A DNA stretch of 64,000 nt from Escherichia phage ph0021. Location of the stretch: sequence record OP557970.1; one strand, 5' to 3'. Under the pieces are notes generated by a model that was given only the letters and a program-made list of their open reading frames with translations, ran no database searches and was not told the origin of the DNA. Shown piece by piece: positions 79 through 11,078 of this stretch (the stretch's first letter is position 1; every line of letters begins with the position of its first letter). Both the position numbers and the translations under genes were made by a program.

Positions 79-3000
79 ATGGCCGAGATTAAAAGAAAGT
101 TCAGAGCAGAAGATGGTCTGGACGCAGGTGGCGATAAAATAATCAACGTAGCTTTAGCTGATCGTACCGTAGGAACTGACGGTGTTAACGTTGATTACTT
201 AATTCAAGAAAACACAGTTCAGCAATATGATCCAACTCGTGGATATTTAAAAGATTTTGTAATCATTTATAATAATCGTTTTTGGGCAGCAACGGATAAT
301 ATTCCAAAACCTGCTGGAAATTTTAATAGAATTCGTTGGAAAGCATTACGTACTGATGCTGTATATACAACTGTATCATCTGGACCATATCAATTAAAAT
401 CCGGAGAAGCAATTTCAGTAGATACATCAGTTGGCAATGACATTGAGTTTACTTTACCACCTTCTCCACTTGATGGAGAAACCGTAATAATTCAAGATAT
501 CGGTGGAAAACCTGGCATAAATCAGGTTAAAATAAATTCTTCAAATCAGAGTATTGTCAATTTTAGAGGTGAACAGGTACGTTCAGTTCTAATGACTCAT
601 CCAAAGTCACAGATGATATTCATTTTTAATAATCGTTTGTGGCAAATGTATGTTGCTGATTATAGCAGAGAAGCTGCGATTGTTACTCCATCGACTGCAT
701 ATCAAGCACAATCTAATGATTTTATCGTGCGTAGATTTACTTCCGCTGCGCCGATTAATGTTAAGCTTCCAAGATTTGCTAATCATGGCGATATTATTAA
801 TTTCGTTGATTTAGATAAATTAAATCCACTTTATCATACAATTGTCACGACATATGATGAAACAACTTCAGTACAAGAAGTTGGAACTCATTCTATTGAA
901 GGCCGTGCATCGATTGACGGTTTCTTGATGTTTGATGATAATGAAAAATTATGGAGATTGTTTGACGGGGATAGTAAAGCACGTTTACGCATTATAACAA
1001 CTAATTCTAATATTCGTCCAAATGAAGAAGTTATGGTATTTGGTGCGAATAACGGAACAGCCCAAACAATTGAACTTCAGCTTCCAACCGATATTTCCAT
1101 TGGTGATACTGTTAAAATTTCCATGAATTACATGAGAAAAGGACAAACAGTTAAAATCAAAGCTGCCGGTGAAGATAAAATTGCTTCTTCAGTTCAATTA
1201 CTGCAATTCCCAAAACGCTCAGAATATCCGCCTGAAGCTGAATGGGTGACTGTTCAAGAATTAGTTTTTAACGGTGAAACTAATTATGTTCCGGTTTTAC
1301 AACTTGCTTATATAGAAGATTCTGACGGAAAATACTGGGTTGTACAGCAAAACGTTCCAACAGTTGAAAGAGTCGATTCTTTAAATAATTCTACTAGAGC
1401 AAGATTAGGCGTAATAGCTTTAGCTACACAAGCTCAAGCAAATGCTGATTTAGAAAATTCTCCACAAAAAGAATTAGCAATTACACCAGAAACATTAGCT
1501 AACCGTACTGCTACAGAAACTCGCAGAGGTATTGCAAGAATAGCAACTACTGCTCAAGTAAATCAGAACACCACATTCTCTTTTGCAGATGACCTTATCA
1601 TCACTCCTAAAAAGCTGAATGAAAGAACTGCTACAGAAACTCGTAGAGGTGTCGCTGAAATTGCTACGCAGCAGGAAACTAATACAGGTACTGATGATAC
1701 TACAATCATCACTCCTAAAAAGCTTCAAGCTCGCCAAGGTTCTGAGTCATTATCTGGTATTGTAACCTTTGTATCTACGGCAGGTGCTACTCCAGCTTCT
1801 AGTCGTGAATTAAATGGTACAAATGTTTATAATAAAAACACTAATAACTTAGTTGTTTCACCTAAAGCCTTGGATCAGTATAAAGCTACTCCAACACAGC
1901 AAGGTGCAGTAATTTTAGCAGTTGAAAGTGAAGTAATTGCTGGACAAAGTCAGGAAGGATGGGCAAATGCTGTTGTAACGCCAGAAACGTTACATAAAAA
2001 GACATCAACTGATGGAAGAATTGGTTTAATTGAAATTGCTACGCAAAGTGAAGTTAATACAGGAACTGATTATACTCGTGCAGTCACTCCTAAAACTTTA
2101 AATGACCGTAGAGCAACTGAAAGTTTAAGTGGTATAGCTGAAATTGCTACACAAGTTGAATTCGACGCAGGCGTCGACGATACTCGTATCTCTACACCAT
2201 TAAAAATTAAAACTAGATTTAATAGTACTGATCGTACTTCTGTTGTTGCTCTATCTGGATTAGTTGAATCAGGAACTCTCTGGGACCATTATACCCTTAA
2301 TATTCTTGAAGCAAATGAGACACAGCGTGGCACACTTCGTGTGGCTACACAGGTTGAAGCTGCTGCAGGAACATTGGATAATGTTCTAATAACTCCTAAA
2401 AAGCTTTTAGGTACTAAATCTACTGAAGCGCAGGAAGGCGTTATTAAAGTTGCAACTCGGTCTGAAACTGTAGCTGGAACGTCAGCAAATACTGCTGTAT
2501 CTCCAAAAAATTTAAAATGGATTGTGCAGAGTGAACCTACTTGGGCAGCGACTACTGCGATAAGAGGTTTTGTTAAAACTTCGTCTGGTTCAATTACATT
2601 CGTTGGTAATGATACAGCTGGTTCAACACAGCCATTAGAATCATATGAGAAAAATGGTTATGCAGTATCACCATATGAATTAAATCGCGTATTAGCAAAT
2701 TATTTGCCGTTAAAAGCAAAAGCCGTAGATAGTAATTTACTGGATGGTCTAGATTCGCTCCAGTTCATTCGTAGGGACATTGCACAAACAGTTAATGGTT
2801 CACTAACCTTAACACAACAAACGAATCTGAGTGCCCCTCTTGTATCATCTAGTACTGCTACGTTCGGTGGATCAGTTTCAGCAAATAGTACACTAACTAT
2901 TTCTAATACTGGAACAGCAACTCGTCTGATTTTTGAGAAAGGACCTCAAACTGGAACAAACCCGGCTCAAACGATGACAGTCAGAGTGTGGGGAAATCAA

Positions 3001-3948
3001 TTTAGTGGGGAATCAGACACAACACGTTCTACCGTATTTGAAGTTAGTGATGAAACGTCTAGTCATTTTTATTCTCAGCGCAATAAAGCTGGAAATATAA
3101 CATTTAATATCAACGGTACAGTAACACCGATAAATGTTAATGCTTCAGGAACATTGAATGCAAATGGTGTAGCAACATTTGGTAATTCAGTCACTGCAAC
3201 TGGTGAAATTATTTCTCGAAGCGCAAATGCTTTCCGTGCTATTAACGGAAATTATGGTTTCATTGTTCGCAATGATGGGTCAGTAACGAATTTTATGCTT
3301 ACTGCATCGGGTGATCAGACTGGTGGATTTAATGGATTACGTCCTTTAGCTATTAATAATGCATCTGGTCAAGTAACGATTGGTGAAAGCTTAATCATTT
3401 CCAAAGGTGCTACTATAAGTTCAGGTGGTTTAACTGTTAACTCGAGAATTCGTTCTCAGGGTACTAAAACCTCTGATTTATATACCCGTGCGCCAACATC
3501 TGATACAGTAGGATTCTGGTCAATCGATATTAATGATTCAGCCACTTATAACCAGTTTCCGGGTTATTTTAAAATGGTTGAAAAAACTAATGAAGTTACT
3601 GGACTTCCATACTTAGAACGTGGTGAAGAAGTTAAATCTCCTGGTACATTGACTCAGTTTGGTAACACACTTGATTCACTTTACCAAGATTGGATTACTT
3701 ATCCAACGACTCCAGAAGCACGTACCACTCGCTGGACACGTACATGGCAGAAAACCAAAAACTCTTGGTCAAGTTTTGTTCAGGTATTTGACGGAGGTAA
3801 CCCTCCTCAACCTTCAGATATAGGAGCGATCCCATCTGATAACGGAATAATAGGTAATCTTACTATTCGCGATTTCTTGCGAATTGGTAATGTTCGCATT
3901 ATTCCTGACCCAGTGAATAAAACTGTTAAATTTGAGTGGATTGAATAA
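79..3948 (+). CDS. 34: long tail fiber proximal subunit gp34
   Basis: 1289-aa ORF; N-terminus MAEIKRKFRAEDGLDAGGDKIINVALADR and length match T-even gp34; internal RTATETRRG...ITPKKL repeats. Confidence 0.93.
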   Translation: MAEIKRKFRAEDGLDAGGDKIINVALADRTVGTDGVNVDYLIQENTVQQYDPTRGYLKDFVIIYNNRFWAATDNIPKPAGNFNRIRWKALRTDAVYTTVSSGPYQLKSGEAISVDTSVGNDIEFTLPPSPLDGETVIIQDIGGKPGINQVKINSSNQSIVNFRGEQVRSVLMTHPKSQMIFIFNNRLWQMYVADYSREAAIVTPSTAYQAQSNDFIVRRFTSAAPINVKLPRFANHGDIINFVDLDKLNPLYHTIVTTYDETTSVQEVGTHSIEGRASIDGFLMFDDNEKLWRLFDGDSKARLRIITTNSNIRPNEEVMVFGANNGTAQTIELQLPTDISIGDTVKISMNYMRKGQTVKIKAAGEDKIASSVQLLQFPKRSEYPPEAEWVTVQELVFNGETNYVPVLQLAYIEDSDGKYWVVQQNVPTVERVDSLNNSTRARLGVIALATQAQANADLENSPQKELAITPETLANRTATETRRGIARIATTAQVNQNTTFSFADDLIITPKKLNERTATETRRGVAEIATQQETNTGTDDTTIITPKKLQARQGSESLSGIVTFVSTAGATPASSRELNGTNVYNKNTNNLVVSPKALDQYKATPTQQGAVILAVESEVIAGQSQEGWANAVVTPETLHKKTSTDGRIGLIEIATQSEVNTGTDYTRAVTPKTLNDRRATESLSGIAEIATQVEFDAGVDDTRISTPLKIKTRFNSTDRTSVVALSGLVESGTLWDHYTLNILEANETQRGTLRVATQVEAAAGTLDNVLITPKKLLGTKSTEAQEGVIKVATRSETVAGTSANTAVSPKNLKWIVQSEPTWAATTAIRGFVKTSSGSITFVGNDTAGSTQPLESYEKNGYAVSPYELNRVLANYLPLKAKAVDSNLLDGLDSLQFIRRDIAQTVNGSLTLTQQTNLSAPLVSSSTATFGGSVSANSTLTISNTGTATRLIFEKGPQTGTNPAQTMTVRVWGNQFSGESDTTRSTVFEVSDETSSHFYSQRNKAGNITFNINGTVTPINVNASGTLNANGVATFGNSVTATGEIISRSANAFRAINGNYGFIVRNDGSVTNFMLTASGDQTGGFNGLRPLAINNASGQVTIGESLIISKGATISSGGLTVNSRIRSQGTKTSDLYTRAPTSDTVGFWSIDINDSATYNQFPGYFKMVEKTNEVTGLPYLERGEEVKSPGTLTQFGNTLDSLYQDWITYPTTPEARTTRWTRTWQKTKNSWSSFVQVFDGGNPPQPSDIGAIPSDNGIIGNLTIRDFLRIGNVRIIPDPVNKTVKFEWIE

Positions 3949-3956
3949 GAGGTATT

Positions 3957-5072
3957 ATGGAAAAATTTATGGCAGAGTTTGGACAAGGATACGTCCAAAC
4001 GCCATTTTTATCGGAAAGTAATTCAGTAAGATATAAAATAAGTATAGCGGGTTCTTGCCCGCTTTCTACAGCAGGACCATATGTTAAATTTCAGGATAAT
4101 CCTGTCGGAAATCAAACATTTAGCGCAGGTCTTCATTTAAGAGTTTTTGACCCTTCAACAGGAGCATTAGTTGATAGTAAGTCATATGCTTTTTCTACTT
4201 CAAACAATACAACATCTGCCGCTTTTGTTAGTTTCATGAATTCTTTGTCAAACAATAGACTTGTTGCTATATTAACTAGCGGAAAGGTTAATTTTCCTCC
4301 TGAAGTGGTATCTTGGTTAAGGGGAGCAGGAACTTCAGTTTTTCCATCAGATTCAGTATTGTCAAGATTTGACGTATCATATGCTGCTTTTTATACTTCT
4401 TCTAAAAGAGCTATTGCATTAGAGCATGTTAAACTAAGTAATAGAAAAAGCACAGATGATTATCAAACTATTTTAGATGTTGTATTTGATAGTTTAGAAG
4501 ACGTCGGAGCTACGGGATTTCCTAAAAGAACATATGAAAGTGTCGAGCAATTTATGTCAGCGGTTGGTGGAACTAATAATGAAATTGCGCGTTTGCCAAC
4601 TTCATCCGCGATAAGTAAATTATCTGATTATAATTTAATTCCTGGTGATGTTCTTTATCTTAAAGCACAGTTATATGCTGATGCTGATTTACTCGATCTT
4701 GGAACTACAAACATATCCATTCGTTTTTATGATGCATCAAATGGATATATTTCCTCTACCCAAGCTGAGTTTACTGGGCAAGCTGGGTCTTGGGAATTAA
4801 AGGAAGATTATGTAGTTGTTCCTGAAAATGCAGTCGGATTTACTATATATGCGCAGAGAACTGCTCAAGCTGGTCAAGGCGGAATGAGGAATTTAAGCTT
4901 TTCTGAAGTATCAAGAAATGGCGGCATTTCAAAACCTGCCGAATTTGGCGTCAACGGTATTCGCGTTAATTATGTCTGTGAATCGGCTTCACCTCCAGAT
5001 ATAATGGTACTTCCTACACAAGCCTCTTCTAAAACTGGCAAAGTGTTTGGGCAAGAATTTAGAGAAGTTTAA
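3957..5072 (+). CDS. 35: long tail fiber hinge protein gp35
   Basis: 371 aa, immediately downstream of 34; T4 gp35 is about 372 aa. Confidence 0.88.
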   Translation: MEKFMAEFGQGYVQTPFLSESNSVRYKISIAGSCPLSTAGPYVKFQDNPVGNQTFSAGLHLRVFDPSTGALVDSKSYAFSTSNNTTSAAFVSFMNSLSNNRLVAILTSGKVNFPPEVVSWLRGAGTSVFPSDSVLSRFDVSYAAFYTSSKRAIALEHVKLSNRKSTDDYQTILDVVFDSLEDVGATGFPKRTYESVEQFMSAVGGTNNEIARLPTSSAISKLSDYNLIPGDVLYLKAQLYADADLLDLGTTNISIRFYDASNGYISSTQAEFTGQAGSWELKEDYVVVPENAVGFTIYAQRTAQAGQGGMRNLSFSEVSRNGGISKPAEFGVNGIRVNYVCESASPPDIMVLPTQASSKTGKVFGQEFREV

Positions 5073-5077
5073 ACTGA

Positions 5078-5101
5078 GGGAGCCTTCGGGTTCCCTTTTT
5101 C
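5078..5101 (+). terminator. rho-independent terminator-like hairpin after gene 35
   Basis: GGGAGCC-TTCG-GGTTCCC stem-loop followed by TTTTTCTTT on the plus strand. Confidence 0.6.
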
Positions 5102-5103
5102 TT

Positions 5104-5111
5104 TATAAATA
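5104..5111 (+). promoter_or_regulatory. T4-type late promoter (TATAAATA) upstream of gene 36
   Basis: Exact TATAAATA about 24 nt upstream of the gene 36 ATG. Confidence 0.6.
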
Positions 5112-5134
5112 ATATTAAAATAAAGGGGCATATA

Positions 5135-5785
5135 ATGGCTGATTTAAAAGTAGGTTCAACTGTAGGTGGATCTGTCATTTGGCATCAAGGAAATTTTCCA
5201 TTGAATTCAGCCGGTGACGATGTACTCTACAAATCATTTAAAATATATTCAGAATATAATAAACCACAGGCAGCTGATAACGATTTCGTTTCTAAAGCTA
5301 ATGGTGGTACTTACACCGGTCCAATTACTATTAATTACGGGGTAAATAGTTATCTTCAATTAAGTAATAATGAAACCCCCATTCGAATTCGTTCTGGTGG
5401 CGGTACCGGTAATACTCTTGTAGTTGGCGGCTCTTCCGGTGGTATTAGTTTTAGACCTGCAGGTAGTGAAATCACTACTGGACAAATTACCATTACGCCA
5501 GAAGGTTTGACAACATTTACCAGGGCTGTAACGGCTCCATCGGTAACTGTTACATCTACTCCTTCCGCAGCATCTGATGTTACTCGTAAAGATTATGTTG
5601 ATGGAGCAATAAATACTGTTACAGCAAATGCAAACTCTAGGGTATTACGCTCTGGAGACACTATGACAGGAAATTTAACTGCGCCAAACCTTTTTTCACA
5701 GAATCCTGCATCTCAACCTTCACACGTTCCACGATTTGACCAAATCGTAATGAAGGATTCTGTTCAAGATTTCGGCTATTATTAA
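5135..5785 (+). CDS. 36: long tail fiber distal connector gp36
   Basis: 216 aa; start [21 protein letters not shown]; position between 35 and 37. Confidence 0.88.
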
Positions 5786-5793
5786 GAGGACTT

Positions 5794-8760
5794 ATGGCTA
5801 CTTTAAAACAAATACAATTTAAAAGAAGCAAAACTGCAGGTCAACGTCCTGCTGCTTCAGTATTAGCCGAAGGTGAATTGGCTATAAACTTAAAAGATAA
5901 AACAATTTTCACAAAAGATGACTCAGGTAGTGTTATAGAATTAGGTTTAAAATATGGAGGAACAATTGATGGTTCTTTAACTGTTAATGGAAACATAATT
6001 GGAAATTTAACAGGTAACGCTGCAACTGCAACGAAATTAAAAACAGCACGAAAAATTAATGGTATATCCTTTGATGGGTCAAAAGATATCACGCTAACTC
6101 CATCTGACATAAATGTCAATAGCACAACGTTTATAAAAAATAACGGCGAATTACCTGTTGATGCTAATTTAGATGAGTATGGGCCTGTTGAAGAATATCT
6201 TGGAGTTTGGTCGAAAGCAACTTCAACCAACGCTCAACCAGCAAATAAATTTCCAGAAGAAAATGCTGTAGGTGTTCTAGAAGTATTTGTGGCCGGTCAA
6301 TTTGCTGGTACTCAGAGATATACAACTAGATACGGAAATGTTTATATTCGTTCCTTGACTGCTACATGGAACGGAGTAAATGGTCCGTGGAGTGTGTGGC
6401 GAAATATTCAATCCGGTACTCGTCCACTGTCAACAACAATTGATCTTAATGATCTAGGAGGCGCTGAACACCTTGGTTTGTGGCGAAATAGTTCAAATTC
6501 CATTGCTACCTTTGACAGAAATTTCCCAGAAGAGGGGTCGTCAGCTCAAGGTCTTTTGGAAGTATCTGAAGGTGGAAACTATTCTCGTACACAAAGATAT
6601 ACAACCAGATTTGGAGTTGTTTATACTCGCTGTCTTACTGCTGCATGGGATGCATCTGCGCCTAAATGGGGACCGTGGCAACAAGTCGGTAATGTCACAC
6701 CGGCGACTTTCTATGATGGAGATCTGAATGATTTTAAAACTCCTGGGTTATATAATATTTTAGGCACTGATGCCGTTATTAACTGTCCTACAGGTGAAGG
6801 TTTGCCGACTGTTATTGTTGGTTTGCTGGAAGTTAAACAGCGTGCTTCTGGCGGTGCTATTTTCCAAAAATTTACTACTGCCGGAACAGGTGCAACTACT
6901 CGCGATCGTATTTTTGAGCGTGCATATACTGGTGGTGCGTGGGGTGCATGGAACGAAGTATATACATCTTATTCTCTGCCAATTACTTTGGGTATGGGTG
7001 GTATTAAAGCTCAATTAGCGGAGTTAGATTGGCAAACCTTTGATTTTGTCCCTGGTAGTATGTTTAGTGTTCCTTTGAACAAAATAAAGAATATGCCCGC
7101 AAATATGGATTGGGGCACGATTGATGGAAACCTGGTTATGTTTTCCGTTGGTCCTAGCGAACACACTAGCACAGGACGTACTGTTCAGATTTGGCGTGGT
7201 ACTGTATCCCAGACAAACTACCGTTATTTTGTCGTTCGTGTATTCGGTAATTCAGGAAATAGAACTTGCACAGTTCGTCGTGTTGTTCTTGAAGACGGAT
7301 CACATACTTGGACTGCTAAACAAGATTTTAATGGCGCAGTTAACTTTAACTCTACTGTTAACCTTAATAACACTACCACATTTAAAACAGAAGTTAAATT
7401 TCGCTCATTGAATGCATTCCGTATGTATGGCGGAAAATTTGGTACATTTTTACGTAATGATGGAGAGAGTCTTTATATTCTTTCCACCGACGAAGATGAT
7501 CAAGATGGAAACTTTAATACAAATAGACCTTTCCGTTATGAATTAAGAACTGGTGATGTTACTTTAGGTGGTATTAGTGGTGCTAACGTTTTAAAATTAA
7601 AACGTGATTCTCTCACCGCATTTTTTGGTGGTGATATTAACATGAAAGGCTTGATGACTTTTGACGCCGGACGTTTAGGATCACGAGATTATTTTAAATT
7701 TAACCATTGGGGTGATAGTAATAATGCGCGTGATAACATTATTCAGTTAGAAGACAGCAAAGGCGCTCATTTTTCCACTGAACGTACTTTAGCGACTGGT
7801 GCAATTAAGACTAAATTTTTTGGTGAAATTGAATCCGATGGTAAATTGGTTATTAAACGTCCGGGTGATTCTATTGTATTATCAGCACCTGCTAATAATT
7901 CTTTGCATATTCGCGGTGATATAGACGGGACTGGTAACTGGTATATTGGTAAAGGTGGTACTGATAATGGATTAGCGTTCTATAGTTATGCTACTAATGC
8001 TGGTGTATACATTACAAACGCAGGAGATATCTCGCTAAGTCCAAAGGGTGCCGAAATGGCTCAGGTCAATAACGTTCGATTATATGTTCATGGTGAACGT
8101 TGGACCGCTAGTCAACCAGGTGATTGGGGCAGTCAGTGGCAAGTGGAAGCGCCAATATTCGTCGATCATGGTTATGTTGGATCAGATAGCTATTATCCAA
8201 TTATTAAAGGAAGAAGTGTAGTCACCAATCAAGGGTTTGTAACTGCCGTCGATCTTGGTATTCGTCGTGTCAATAACAATTGGGGACAAGCAATTATTCG
8301 TGTTGGATCTGCGGAGGCATCGCCAGCGGCTGGACACCCTAACGCGGTATTTGAATTTCATTACGACGGTACTTTCTATTCTCCTGGTAATGGTAACTTT
8401 AACGATGTGTATATTCGTTCCGATGGTCGTCTTAAGATTAATAAAAAAGAGCTAGAAAACGGAGCACTTGAAAAAGTATGCCGACTGAAAGTTTATATTT
8501 ACGATAAGGTTAAGTCTATTAAAGACCGTAGTGTTATTAAACGCGAAGTTGGTATTATTGCTCAGGATCTTGAAAAAGAATTACCGGAAGCTGTGTCTAA
8601 AGTTGAAGTTGATGGATCTGATGTTCTGACAATTTCTAACTCCGCTGTGAATGCTCTTTTAATTAAGGCTATCCAAGAAATGAGCGAAGAAATTAAAGAA
8701 TTAAAAACGCCTTTCTTCACTAAAATTGCTCGCAAAATTAGTAAATATTTTAAATTCTAA
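5794..8760 (+). CDS. 37: long tail fiber distal subunit gp37 with C-terminal intramolecular-chaperone-like region
   Basis: 988 aa; start [22 protein letters not shown]; C-terminal region after [22 protein letters not shown] resembles the cleaved C-terminus of T2-type gp37. Confidence 0.9.
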
Positions 8761-8794
8761 CAACAAGGGGCAACGCCCCCTTTGGAGATAAATT

Positions 8795-9595
8795 ATGGCA
8801 GTAGTTGGTGTTCCTGGTTGGATTGGTAGTTCATCCGTAAATGAAACAGGACAACGATGGATGAGTCAAGCGGCTGGTCAATTAAGATTGGGTGTTCCTT
8901 GCTGGATGAGTCAATTTGCAGGTCGCTCACGAGAAATTATTCATACACTTGGAGCAGACCATAACTTCAATGGTCAATGGTTCCGAGATAGATGTTTTGA
9001 GGCCGGTAGTGCACCTATAGTGTTTAATATTACAGGTGATTTAGTATCATATTCTAAAGATGTTCCTTTATTCTTCATGTACGGGGATACGCCTAATGAA
9101 TATGTTGTTCTTAATATTCATGGTGGTGTTCATATGTGGGGTCGTGGTGGTAATGGTGGATACACTCACTCAGGAGGCGACGGTAACGGTACACAAGGCG
9201 GTCATGTTATTCAAAATGATATCGGCGGACGGCTTCGTATTTGGAACTACGGTGTTATAGCTGCTGGCGGTGGCGGTGGCGGTGGTATTGCATATCGTCC
9301 ACACTCAGGGGCAAACTGGCAAGATATCGGTGGCGGTGGTGGTCGACCTTTCGGTGGCGCTGGCGGTGGCGGTTATTCCGGTGGTGCTGCTTCGTATGAA
9401 GGTCCGGGTGGTGGTTATGACTATGGTAACGCACACTCCGGCGCTGGTGGTAATGCTGGTGCTGCTGGTCAGAATGCATGGTCTGACGGCGGTAAAGTTC
9501 TTAAAGTTGGTGTTGGTGGTGCGTCTGGTCATGCAGTGTTTGGATCTTCTCCAACTTGGGGTGTTGTTGGAACAATTTACGGACCAAGAGTATAA
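8795..9595 (+). CDS. 38: tail fiber tip adhesin gp38 (T2-type, glycine-rich motifs separating variable segments)
   Basis: 266 aa; several GGGGGG/GxGGG islands; T4 gp38 is 183 aa whereas T2-type adhesins are about 260 aa. Confidence 0.88.
9256..9375 (+). repeat. imperfect (GGY)n codon repeats encoding the gp38 glycine-rich motifs
   Basis: Runs of ggcggtggcggtggcggtggt and ggtggcggtggtggt inside gene 38. Confidence 0.6.
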
Positions 9596-9599
9596 TGTG

Positions 9600-9607
9600 A
9601 ATAAATA
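9600..9607 (+). promoter_or_regulatory. late-promoter-like element (AATAAATA) upstream of t
   Basis: One mismatch to TATAAATA, about 18 nt upstream of the t ATG. Confidence 0.3.
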
Positions 9608-9625
9608 CCCTTAAAAGGAGGGTCT

Positions 9626-10282
9626 ATGGCAGCACCTAGAATATCATTTTCGCCCTCTGATATTCTATTTGGTGTTCTAGATCGCTTGTTCAAAGATAAT
9701 GCTACCGGGAAAGTTCTTGCTTCCCGGGTAGCTGTCGTAATTCTTTTGTTTATAATGGCGATTGTATGGTATAGGGGAGATAGTTTCTTTGAGTACTATA
9801 AGCAATCAAAGTATGAAACATACAGTGAAATTATTGAAAAGGAAAGAAATGCACGCTTTGAATCTGTCGCCCTGGAACAACTCCAGATAGTTCATATATC
9901 ATCTGAGGCAGACTTTAGTGCGGTGTATTCTTTCCGCCCTAAAAACTTAAACTATTTTGTTGATATTATAGCATATGAAGGAAGATTACCTTCAACAATA
10001 ACTGAAAAATCACTTGGAGGATATCCTGTTGATAAAACTATGGATGAATATACAGTTCATTTAAATGGACGTCATTATTATTCCAACTCAAAATTTGCTT
10101 TTTTACCAACTAAAAAGCCTACTCCCGAAATAAACTACATGTACAGTTGTCCATATTTTAATTTGGATAATATCTATGCTGGAACGATAACCATGTACTG
10201 GTATAGAAATGATCATATAAGTAATGACCGCCTTGAATCAATATGTGCTCAGGCGGCCAGAATATTAGGAAGGGCTAAATAA
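9626..10282 (+). CDS. t: holin T
   Basis: 218 aa, same length as T4 holin; N-terminal cytoplasmic region, single TM segment (VAVVILLFIMAIVWY), large C-terminal domain. Confidence 0.93.
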   Translation: MAAPRISFSPSDILFGVLDRLFKDNATGKVLASRVAVVILLFIMAIVWYRGDSFFEYYKQSKYETYSEIIEKERNARFESVALEQLQIVHISSEADFSAVYSFRPKNLNYFVDIIAYEGRLPSTITEKSLGGYPVDKTMDEYTVHLNGRHYYSNSKFAFLPTKKPTPEINYMYSCPYFNLDNIYAGTITMYWYRNDHISNDRLESICAQAARILGRAK

Positions 10283-10555
10283 TTATTTGTTCGTATACAT
10301 CTCTAGATATCGATATACACCCTCAAAACCCTCGTTGAATTCGTCGATGAGGGTTTTCTTATCTTCTTGAGTTAATTCAGAAACAATTTTACGGAATGAA
10401 TTCTGATTTAACTTTCTACCTTCATGCGTTACTCCAATCTCATTCAGAAATGCAATAAAATTAGCACGATTCTCAACAATATCTTCTCTGGAAAATTTAA
10501 TCAAAATAGACGCAACAGTAATAATTTCACGAACTGTATCAATATTTTTATTCAT
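10283..10555 (-). CDS. asiA: anti-sigma-70 factor AsiA
   Basis: 90 aa; MNKNIDTVREIITVASILIKFSREDIVENRANFIAFLNEIGVTHEGRKL matches T4 AsiA. Confidence 0.95.
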   Translation of the reverse strand: MNKNIDTVREIITVASILIKFSREDIVENRANFIAFLNEIGVTHEGRKLNQNSFRKIVSELTQEDKKTLIDEFNEGFEGVYRYLEMYTNK

Positions 10556-10567
10556 TAACTATACCAC

Positions 10568-10720
10568 TCAATTAGTTGACTTTGTTATAATATCATCAGA
10601 CGTTTGTTTTGTAAACTGGTCTGTGTTATTTTCTTCAAAAATTTTTTCTACGAATTCCTTGAACGACTCACGTTCCTGAGCTACATTATGCTCGATTACC
10701 ATTTCAAGATTATGACTCAT
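10568..10720 (-). CDS. small hypothetical protein (50 aa) between asiA and arn
   Basis: ATG overlaps the arn stop (ATGA); acidic 50-aa ORF; below the ORF-track size cutoff. Confidence 0.4.
   Translation of the reverse strand: MSHNLEMVIEHNVAQERESFKEFVEKIFEENNTDQFTKQTSDDIITKSTN
10587..10616 (-). promoter_or_regulatory. T4-type early promoter upstream of asiA
   Basis: Minus-strand GTTTAC, 18 bp spacer, TATTAT. Confidence 0.5.
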
Positions 10721-10995
10721 TCGAAATAATCTTCAATTTCGTAATCATGGACGTAAATCATTATAGTTTTTAATACATCATCAATACTTTTTCCTGGAGC
10801 TGGAATTACGTAAAAATATCCTGCTTTTGAGAGGTCTTTATAAGTTCCAACCAAGAAATCATTATTCTCGAGATGTAATTCTTCAACTAATTCATTAACA
10901 ATTGAATGGTATAAATTTGGTAGAAACTTATATAGCTTTTCTAGAATATCAATTTTGATTGTATATTGAACCACAGATTGAGAATCAATAATCAT
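10717..10995 (-). CDS. arn: anti-restriction nuclease Arn (McrBC inhibitor)
   Basis: 92 aa; MIIDSQSVVQYTIKIDILEKLYKF...; size and position match T4 Arn. Confidence 0.88.
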   Translation of the reverse strand: MIIDSQSVVQYTIKIDILEKLYKFLPNLYHSIVNELVEELHLENNDFLVGTYKDLSKAGYFYVIPAPGKSIDDVLKTIMIYVHDYEIEDYFE

Positions 10996-11078
10996 AGACC
11001 TTCCCCTTATGTTTCTGTTTGCGATTAGATTCTTTAAACGCTTTCTTCTTATCCTTATGAACAGAAGCTTTATTAAAA

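Follow-up and report, generated by a model that had tools for sequence, protein, structure and literature searches.

A probable T2/Ox2-type tail-fibre adhesin, gp38, and its predicted self-processing partner gp37 in Escherichia phage ph0021

[quoted passage not shown] Gene 38 is an ATG..TAA open reading frame on the + strand (8795..9595) encoding 266 amino acids, exactly the frame given in the sequence-only reading, and a Shine-Dalgarno sequence GGAG, read from the sequence, stands 7 nt before the ATG (8784..8787, + strand). The product matched Pfam GP38 (PF05268; E=2.5e-67, 227 bits against a cut-off of 25, with profile positions 1-218 of 218 covered), Pfam Gp38_N (PF21721; E=3.2e-19, 69 bits against a cut-off of 25) and PHROG 2056 (E=2e-109), and the frame is therefore no chance ORF. 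Two solved homologues were found by sequence, gp38 of PP01 (9v85, PMC12892980; E=3e-65) and gp38 of S16 (6f45_D; E=5e-43). We put the probability at roughly 0.87 that gp38 is a tail-fibre adhesin of the T2/Ox2 type paired with a self-processing gp37, the binding and the cleavage being transferred from homologues. The data directly support the family and the domains assigned to gp38, its predicted fold, the cleavage motif in gp37 and the near-identity to characterised OmpA adhesins.

The feature as such is ordinary and already described, and what is known of gp38 adhesins is not extended by it. The adhesin concept was published, for the same gene family, by Riede et al. 1987, and the processing of gp37 by Drexler et al. 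1986; the model of glycine-rich motifs and hypervariable segments (HVS) was given by Trojet 2011 (PMC3157838), structures of gp38 have been published (Dunne 2018; PMC12892980), and so has its receptor code (PMC12032242; 2026 bioRxiv screen 10.64898/2026.04.02.716166). The exact gp38 sequence is also present in GenBank with the correct functional label (OR584013.1). What the locus offers is a prediction from sequence alone: the receptor would be OmpA, in the Ox2 or "type 1" class, and the gp37 processing site can be placed at R875/S876.

Glycine accounts for 69 of the 266 residues of gp38 (26%), with a share of 13% in residues 1-117 and of 36% in residues 118-266, and forms 15 runs of at least two residues, including runs of seven (158-164), five (179-183) and four (190-193). 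Column entropy was computed from an alignment of 60 sequences of the gp38 family, which also served as input for AlphaFold2 (AF2). The most variable columns of this alignment were residues 123-134 (HVS1; 9161..9196), 165-178 (HVS2; 9287..9328), 191-217 (HVS3; 9365..9445) and 226-240 (HVS4; 9470..9514), all on the + strand, and the glycine-rich motifs around residues 116-122, 135-136, 158-164, 179-190, 216-225 and 241-245 were invariant or nearly so; the central run G158-G164 (9266..9286, + strand), encoded by GGCGGTGGCGGTGGCGGTGGT, was invariant across all 60 sequences. The multiple poly-Gly islands with short variable segments between them, which had been read from the sequence alone, are thus borne out both by the glycine runs and by the entropy profile. 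Five receptor loops have been defined experimentally in PP01 gp38 (PMC12892980), and they map to residues 127-130 (loop A, in HVS1), 167-177 (loop B, in HVS2, which also holds N174 and an RPHSGA block), 191-194 and 209-213 (loops C and D, in HVS3, which also holds G193) and 227-234 (loop E, in HVS4) of the gp38 studied here.

Along the protein, four parts can be told apart, all on the + strand. Residues 1-42 (8795..8920) form the N-terminal attachment domain identified by Pfam Gp38_N, with three tryptophan "prongs", W9, W22 and W37, which were conserved and aligned with the tryptophans of S16 gp38 in every sequence of the adhesin panel (described below) that covers those columns; in S16 the tryptophans plug gp38 into the gp37 trimer (PMC6851490, PMC7917993). 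Residues 43-117 (8921..9145), marked by low column entropy and by beta strands in the AF2 model, are a conserved linker and beta-helix part, and residues 118-245 (9146..9529), delimited by entropy, AF2, Foldseek and the adhesin alignment, are the specificity region of glycine-rich motifs and hypervariable segments, predicted to form a polyglycine-II sandwich. The conserved C-terminal strands (residues 246-266; 9530..9592; entropy and AF2 model) close the beta-helix. The AF2 monomer model had a mean pLDDT of 87.4 and a pTM of 0.80, with pLDDT above 90 from residue 50 and only the first 14 residues poorly defined, and its predicted fold is a beta-helix with a polyglycine-II sandwich. A Foldseek search of the model against the PDB returned 9v85 (E=2e-25, TM 0.74/0.89) and 6f45_D (E=2e-20), and beyond these two the next match in the PDB had an E value above 2; the polyglycine-II sandwich has been reported to be unique (PMC6851490), and the restriction of the matches to two gp38 structures agrees with that. 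The assignment to the T2 type of adhesin and not to the chaperone of T4, made earlier from the letters alone, agrees with the GP38 and Gp38_N domains, with the lack of similarity to T4 gp38 and with a fold that matches PP01 and S16 gp38.

Upstream, gene 37 (5794..8760, + strand) encodes the precursor of the distal subunit of the long tail fibre, 988 amino acids long, with matches to PHROG 1699 (E=2.7e-224) and to Pfam Gp34_trimer and Peptidase_S74. The last roughly 110 residues of gp37 had been said to resemble the region that is removed proteolytically in T2-type fibres, and the resemblance could be made precise: Peptidase_S74 (PF13884, "chaperone of endosialidase") was found at residues 876-934 (E=5e-11), and gp37 has an exact DVYIR^SDGRLKI motif (residues 871-882; 8404..8439, + strand) that aligns to DLNVS^SDRRIKK of S16 gp37 (PDB 6f45_A). 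In S16 the last 113 residues of gp37 serve as an intramolecular chaperone and are removed by self-cleavage at that site, and the same site has been aligned to DVYIR^SDGRLKI of related Tequatroviruses and fPS phages (PMC7917993); cleavage of gp37, with a single gp38 at every fibre tip of the virion, has been demonstrated in T2 and S16 (for S16, PMC7917993). By this alignment, processing is predicted to occur between R875 and S876 and to release residues 876-988 (8419..8757, + strand), a C-terminal intramolecular chaperone domain of 113 amino acids (~12.8 kDa) that would leave after trimerisation; the computed products are a mature gp37 of 875 amino acids (~95 kDa) and the 113-residue fragment.

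Taken together with the structures of the homologues, these features suggest how the tip may be assembled. The chaperone domain of gp37 would help its own protein to trimerise and would then cut itself between R875 and S876, freeing residues 876-988, so that a flat tip of the gp37 trimer ending in DVYIR would become exposed. One gp38 would dock on this tip by its N-terminal domain (W9, W22, W37), and its C-terminal half would fold into a beta-helix topped by the polyglycine-II sandwich built from the glycine-rich motifs, from which loops at about residues 127-130, 167-177, 191-194, 209-213 and 227-234 would project distally and bind an outer-membrane protein. In this scheme the gp37 cleavage, the 3:1 stoichiometry and the binding to OmpA are inferred from homologues. 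It may be that gp38, besides being the adhesin, is also required for the gp37 tip to assemble, a dual role that is compatible with the main explanation; since gp37 has its own intramolecular chaperone domain, an obligatory external chaperone function of gp38 is less necessary, and we regard such a role as possible but rather unlikely.

On the left of gene 37, gp35 (3957..5072) and gp36 (5135..5785) were identified by Pfam and PHROG matches, and gene t, the holin gene, follows on the right (9626..10282, + strand; Pfam Phage_holin_T, E=4e-117). An exact-motif search found TATAAATA, which we take from established knowledge of T4 late promoters to be a T4-type late promoter, 5' of gene 36 (5104..5111, + strand); within 2001-11000 it occurs once on the + strand, and a late g36-g37-g38 transcript likely starts there. 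Scans for sigma-70 promoters and terminators around gene 38 gave nothing above chance. RNA folding indicated a small G+C-rich hairpin (GGGGC..GCCCC; 8766..8781, + strand) between the stop codon of gene 37 and the ribosome-binding site of gene 38. Its stem is kept in 10 T-even phages including T4, with a loop of either the UUCG or the CAAC form, but it showed no excess stability over shuffled sequence (z=-0.5), and it was rejected as a terminator or regulator, being no more stable than the shuffles and without a terminator call although the stem is conserved.

Which receptor gp38 would bind can be approached through its variable segments. That these segments determine the outer-membrane protein bound, as the sequence-only reading held, is the published model (PMC12032242, PMC3157838, bioRxiv 10.64898/2026.04.02.716166), and those of the present gp38 group cleanly with OmpA binders. 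We aligned the specificity region (residues 118-245) with a panel of adhesins whose receptor assignments were taken from the same three sources. Identity over residues 118-245 was 100% to DalCa, VEc20 and Sf21 (E. coli / Shigella hosts; a search for their names in two papers gave no receptor data for these three), 98% to Ox2 (OmpA), 85% to RB32 (OmpA, LPS-sensitive), 84% to AV119 and 83% to FL08 (both OmpA "type 1"). It fell to 51% for RB51 (OmpF), 45% for T6 (Tsx), 44% for M1 (OmpA, of another lineage), 43% for FL18 (OmpA "type 2"), 42% for PP01 (OmpC), 40% for T2 (FadL/OmpF) and 38% for S16 (OmpC). The comparison with adhesins of known specificity that had been proposed as a check thus sets 83-98% to Ox2, RB32, FL08 and AV119 against 38-51% to the binders of other receptors, and in the hypervariable segments alone the separation is wider still, with 83-100% identity to the Ox2/type 1 group and 0-37% to every other adhesin of the panel. 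PP01 gp38, the best sequence match in the PDB and an OmpC binder, was considered as a predictor of the receptor and rejected, the likeness lying in the conserved scaffold and the loops being 7-33% identical.

Among the OmpA contacts of FL08 at R165-A170, five of six are kept in the present protein (R168, H170, S171, G172 and A173; V166 is replaced by P169), and the contact D217 corresponds to N220 both here and in Ox2. Ox2 uses OmpA, and closely related gp38 proteins share their receptor (PMC12032242). From the identities in the specificity region, the five FL08 contacts that are kept and this rule of relatedness we predict that the receptor is very probably enterobacterial OmpA, in the Ox2 or "type 1" class; the change at FL08 D217 speaks against it. 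OmpA may not suffice, since full infectivity of Ox2 requires more than one receptor (Trojet et al., PMC3157838).

At the DNA level, the second-best match of gene 38 was X05675.1, deposited in 1987 as "Bacteriophage Ox2 gene 38 for receptor-recognizing protein" (99.3% identity). Six nucleotides differ between the two, and two of the differences alter the protein: N174 (K in Ox2) lies in the loop-B equivalent and G193 (R in Ox2) in the loop-C equivalent, both predicted receptor loops. N174 and G193 are found as well in DalCa, VEc20, Sf21, FL08 and AV119. K174 recurs in RB32, and R193 occurs within the panel solely in the 1987 Ox2 record, where it may reflect either variation particular to the strain or a mistake in the early sequencing. 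Ox2 and RB32 are also the two panel members described as requiring more than OmpA (Trojet et al., PMC3157838); K168 of PP01 has been suggested to touch LPS (PMC12892980), and position 174 aligns beside it. That K174 adds a contact with LPS is speculation.

A gp38 that is an adhesin for something other than OmpA, be it another porin, LPS (reported for host-range mutants of Ox2) or a surface molecule of Pseudomonas, appears improbable. Such a receptor could be argued from the place of both Ox2 differences in predicted receptor loops, where a single substitution can redirect the choice of receptor (Q206L in RB51 switches it from OmpF to OmpW; bioRxiv 10.64898/2026.04.02.716166), from the description of Ox2 and RB32 as OmpA-dependent and LPS-sensitive, and from an identical sequence recorded, with its paper, under a host in Pseudomonas syringae pv. 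garcae and a low EOP on E. coli. Against it, N174 and G193 occur in FL08 and AV119, whose dependence on OmpA is experimental, the specificity region shows 100% identity to those of DalCa, VEc20 and Sf21, which were isolated on E. coli or Shigella, with E. coli K12 among the hosts listed for them, a single record among the 407 DNA matches to gene 38 carries a Pseudomonas label, and the replication module too is 96-97% identical to that of coliphages.

The record in question, "Pseudomonas phage PsgM02F" (OR584013.1), is 100% identical to the window in gene 38 (CDS0225 of that record) and its neighbours, and annotates the gp38 ORF as "tail fiber protein; host specificity". Its stated host is P. 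syringae pv. garcae, plating on E. coli ATCC 25922 reached an EOP of only 0.11%, and the paper on this phage remarks that no other Pseudomonas virus is placed within Tequatrovirus (PMC10815195). Of the 407 DNA matches to gene 38, PsgM02F is the only one labelled as Pseudomonas, and a 24-kb segment of replication genes shares 96-97% identity with E. coli phages, FL08 among them. No signs of adaptation to pseudomonads, or to any other new host, were seen in the matches to gene 38, the specificity region or the 24-kb replication segment.

The Pseudomonas host of PsgM02F is not accounted for by a coliphage adhesin specific for OmpA. Either the host assignment of PsgM02F requires re-checking or the adhesin or fibre has an unexpected second target. 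That the label is correct and an Ox2-type adhesin or fibre recognises a non-enterobacterial receptor, e.g., an OmpA homologue of the OprF type or the LPS core, seems very improbable; infection of P. syringae pv. garcae, if true, would mean a host range across orders without a change of the adhesin. As PsgM02F was deposited as a Pseudomonas phage for the biocontrol of coffee blight, yet has the host-recognition module of a coliphage, caution is advised about the stated host.

We also considered whether the glycine codons themselves promote exchange, as the sequence-only reading had supposed in calling the GGY repeats prone to recombination. GGT and GGC make up 59 of the 69 glycine codons of gp38 and 69 of the 106 of gp37, and the G+C content of the specificity region is 55.5% as against 35% for the whole window. 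The longest exact internal repeat in gene 38 is 15 nt, a length reached by 3% of codon shuffles and so barely greater than they would lead one to expect, and with repeats so short a repeat-driven rearrangement within the gene is weakly suggested.

Between phages the pattern is clearer. Compared with T6, the DNA of the window is 84% identical over the first 300 residues of gp37 and 85-96% over residues 301-988 (the chaperone domain included), 88% over residues 1-117 of gp38, 54% over gp38 residues 118-245 and 99.5% in gene t; identity drops near gp38 residues 115-125, at the first glycine-rich motif, and returns near residues 241-260. The gp38 of VEc20 is 97-100% identical to the window, and the break in the gp37 tip lies inside the chaperone domain (window ~8600-8630). 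Gene t is uniformly conserved (98-99.5% DNA identity across all phages compared), and the variable cassette thus has its right-hand boundary there. From the mosaic patterns of T6 and VEc20 the adhesin cassette appears, as a comparative observation, to move as a unit, with some of its edges in conserved sequence including a glycine motif; exchange of cassettes at conserved or glycine motifs was proposed by Tetart et al. 1998 and by Trojet et al. 2011 (PMC3157838). The supposition about the GGY repeats therefore holds in part: the mosaicism between phages fits it, but the internal repeats do not exceed 15 nt and one breakpoint lies inside gp37, outside the glycine motifs.

T4 is one of the known systems compared. 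Its gp38 has the same gene name and the same place between gene 37 and gene t, but an unrelated sequence; it is a chaperone outside the virion, and T4 gp37 itself binds the receptor. The sequence-only reading had itself singled out an alignment with the T4-type chaperone as adverse, and BLASTP against T4 gp38 (NP_049864.1, 183 amino acids, from NC_000866) gave no meaningful alignment (E=3.7). The Pfam GP38 domain is absent from T4 gp38, and T4 gp37 has Collar and Phage_fiber domains (PF07484, PF03335) and no S74, whereas gp37 of the present phage has S74 and neither of those. That the present gp38 is a T4-type folding chaperone of gp37 that stays outside the virion, with the gp37 tip binding the receptor, is accordingly so improbable as to be negligible, for it has in its favour the gene name, the position 3' of gene 37 and the label "distal long tail fiber assembly catalyst" on gp38-family homologues in some deposited genomes, and against it the BLASTP result, the domain missing from T4 gp38, an S74 self-chaperone in place of the T4 tip of gp37 and a predicted fold equal to that of solved adhesins.

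The structural counterparts of our T2/Ox2-type adhesin are the gp37-gp38 of S16 (6f45) and the gp38 of PP01 (9v85), which share with it the domain of tryptophan prongs, the beta-helix and the polyglycine-II sandwich, and have the gp37 chaperone domain and the cleavage motif in common as well; both are OmpC binders, and their loops are unrelated to those described here (0-33% identity in the hypervariable segments). Closer are FL08, AV119 and RB32, dependent on OmpA by experiment, which have the same loop lengths and conserve the RxHSGA block, while FL08 and AV119 differ in the N-terminal attachment domain (75-78% identity) and in several loop substitutions.

The gp38 proteins of the coliphages vB_EcoM_DalCa and VEc20 and of the Shigella phage Sf21 differ from the present gp38 by one or two residues overall, and not at all in the specificity region. 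DalCa and Sf21 also share its gp37 (98% DNA identity; 98.1% for gene 37 of the coliphage DalCa), whereas gp37 of VEc20 has 1027 amino acids and a different tip, with ~50% DNA identity over gp37 residues 701-875. The closest named relative of gp38 is Ox2 and not T2, whose gp38 is 40-48% identical. Ox2 gp38 (X05675.1, CAA29158.1) likewise has 266 amino acids, 264 of which are identical; its gp37 fragment agrees in 242 of the last 251 residues of gp37 (9 differ), and the start of its gene t is also alike. Ox2 gp38 is an OmpA-recognising adhesin, and the one on which the adhesin concept of the T-even phages was built (Riede et al. 1987; Drexler et al. 1989, 1991).

The record OR584013.1, which is identical to the window, was deposited as a phage of Pseudomonas syringae pv. 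garcae, and plating of this phage on E. coli ATCC 25922 gave a reported EOP of 0.11% (PMC10815195). Of the 407 DNA matches to gene 38, no other record carries a Pseudomonas label. The alignment showed adhesins of E. coli and Shigella phages with 100% identity to the specificity region of the window gp38, and the replication module is 96-97% identical to that of coliphages. The Pseudomonas host label and the gp38 adhesin of OR584013.1 do not fit each other. Among the protein database matches to gp38, one cluster (P0047) carries an NCBI name that assigns it to 'Bacillus cereus', probably because of phage contamination of an assembly. In P0076 (303 aa), a Peptidase_S74 segment is fused to a gp38 domain, which is probably a gene-calling read-through over the g37/g38 junction.

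In the gp37 tip (residues 701-875), the DNA of VEc20 and RB32, both with a gp37 of 1027 aa, is only about 50% identical to the window. Despite this divergent tip, the gp38 of VEc20 is 97-100% identical to that of the window. The recombination breakpoint is at window 8600..8630, inside the intramolecular chaperone domain of gp37, the last third of which therefore travels with gp38. The proximal connector or hinge protein gp35 (3957..5072) showed a Pfam match to ILEI (PF15711, 'Interleukin-like EMT inducer') at residues 58-112 (E=5e-8; score 33.7 bits, cut-off 27), a surprising domain assignment for the hinge protein of a phage fibre.

Several long ORFs occur in alternative frames on both strands of the gene 38 region 9060..9614, including one on the plus strand (9270..9614, 114 aa) and two on the minus strand (9255..9479, 74 aa; 9305..9532, 75 aa). 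Their translations are of low complexity (VAVAV..., HRHRH...), and they arise as by-products of the GGN codon periodicity and are not genes.

The G+C-rich hairpin GGGGC-loop-GCCCC (8766..8781) lies in the interval from the g37 stop codon to the g38 ribosome-binding site, and showed no excess stability over shuffled sequence (z=-0.5). Its stem is kept in all ten T-even phages compared, T4 among them; the loop is a C(UUCG)G tetraloop in T4, T2 and RB51, and CAAC in the window, Ox2 and DalCa.

Two gp38 positions were compared across the panel of aligned adhesins. R193 (codon 9371..9373) was seen in the 1987 Ox2 record alone, and may for this reason be either a change in that strain or an error of the old sequencing. 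At position 174 (codon 9314..9316), which aligns adjacent to K168 of PP01 gp38, a suggested LPS contact (PMC12892980), the window shares N174 with DalCa, VEc20, Sf21, FL08 and AV119; K174 is common to the two phages of the panel that have been described as OmpA plus LPS-sensitive, Ox2 and RB32 (PMC3157838).
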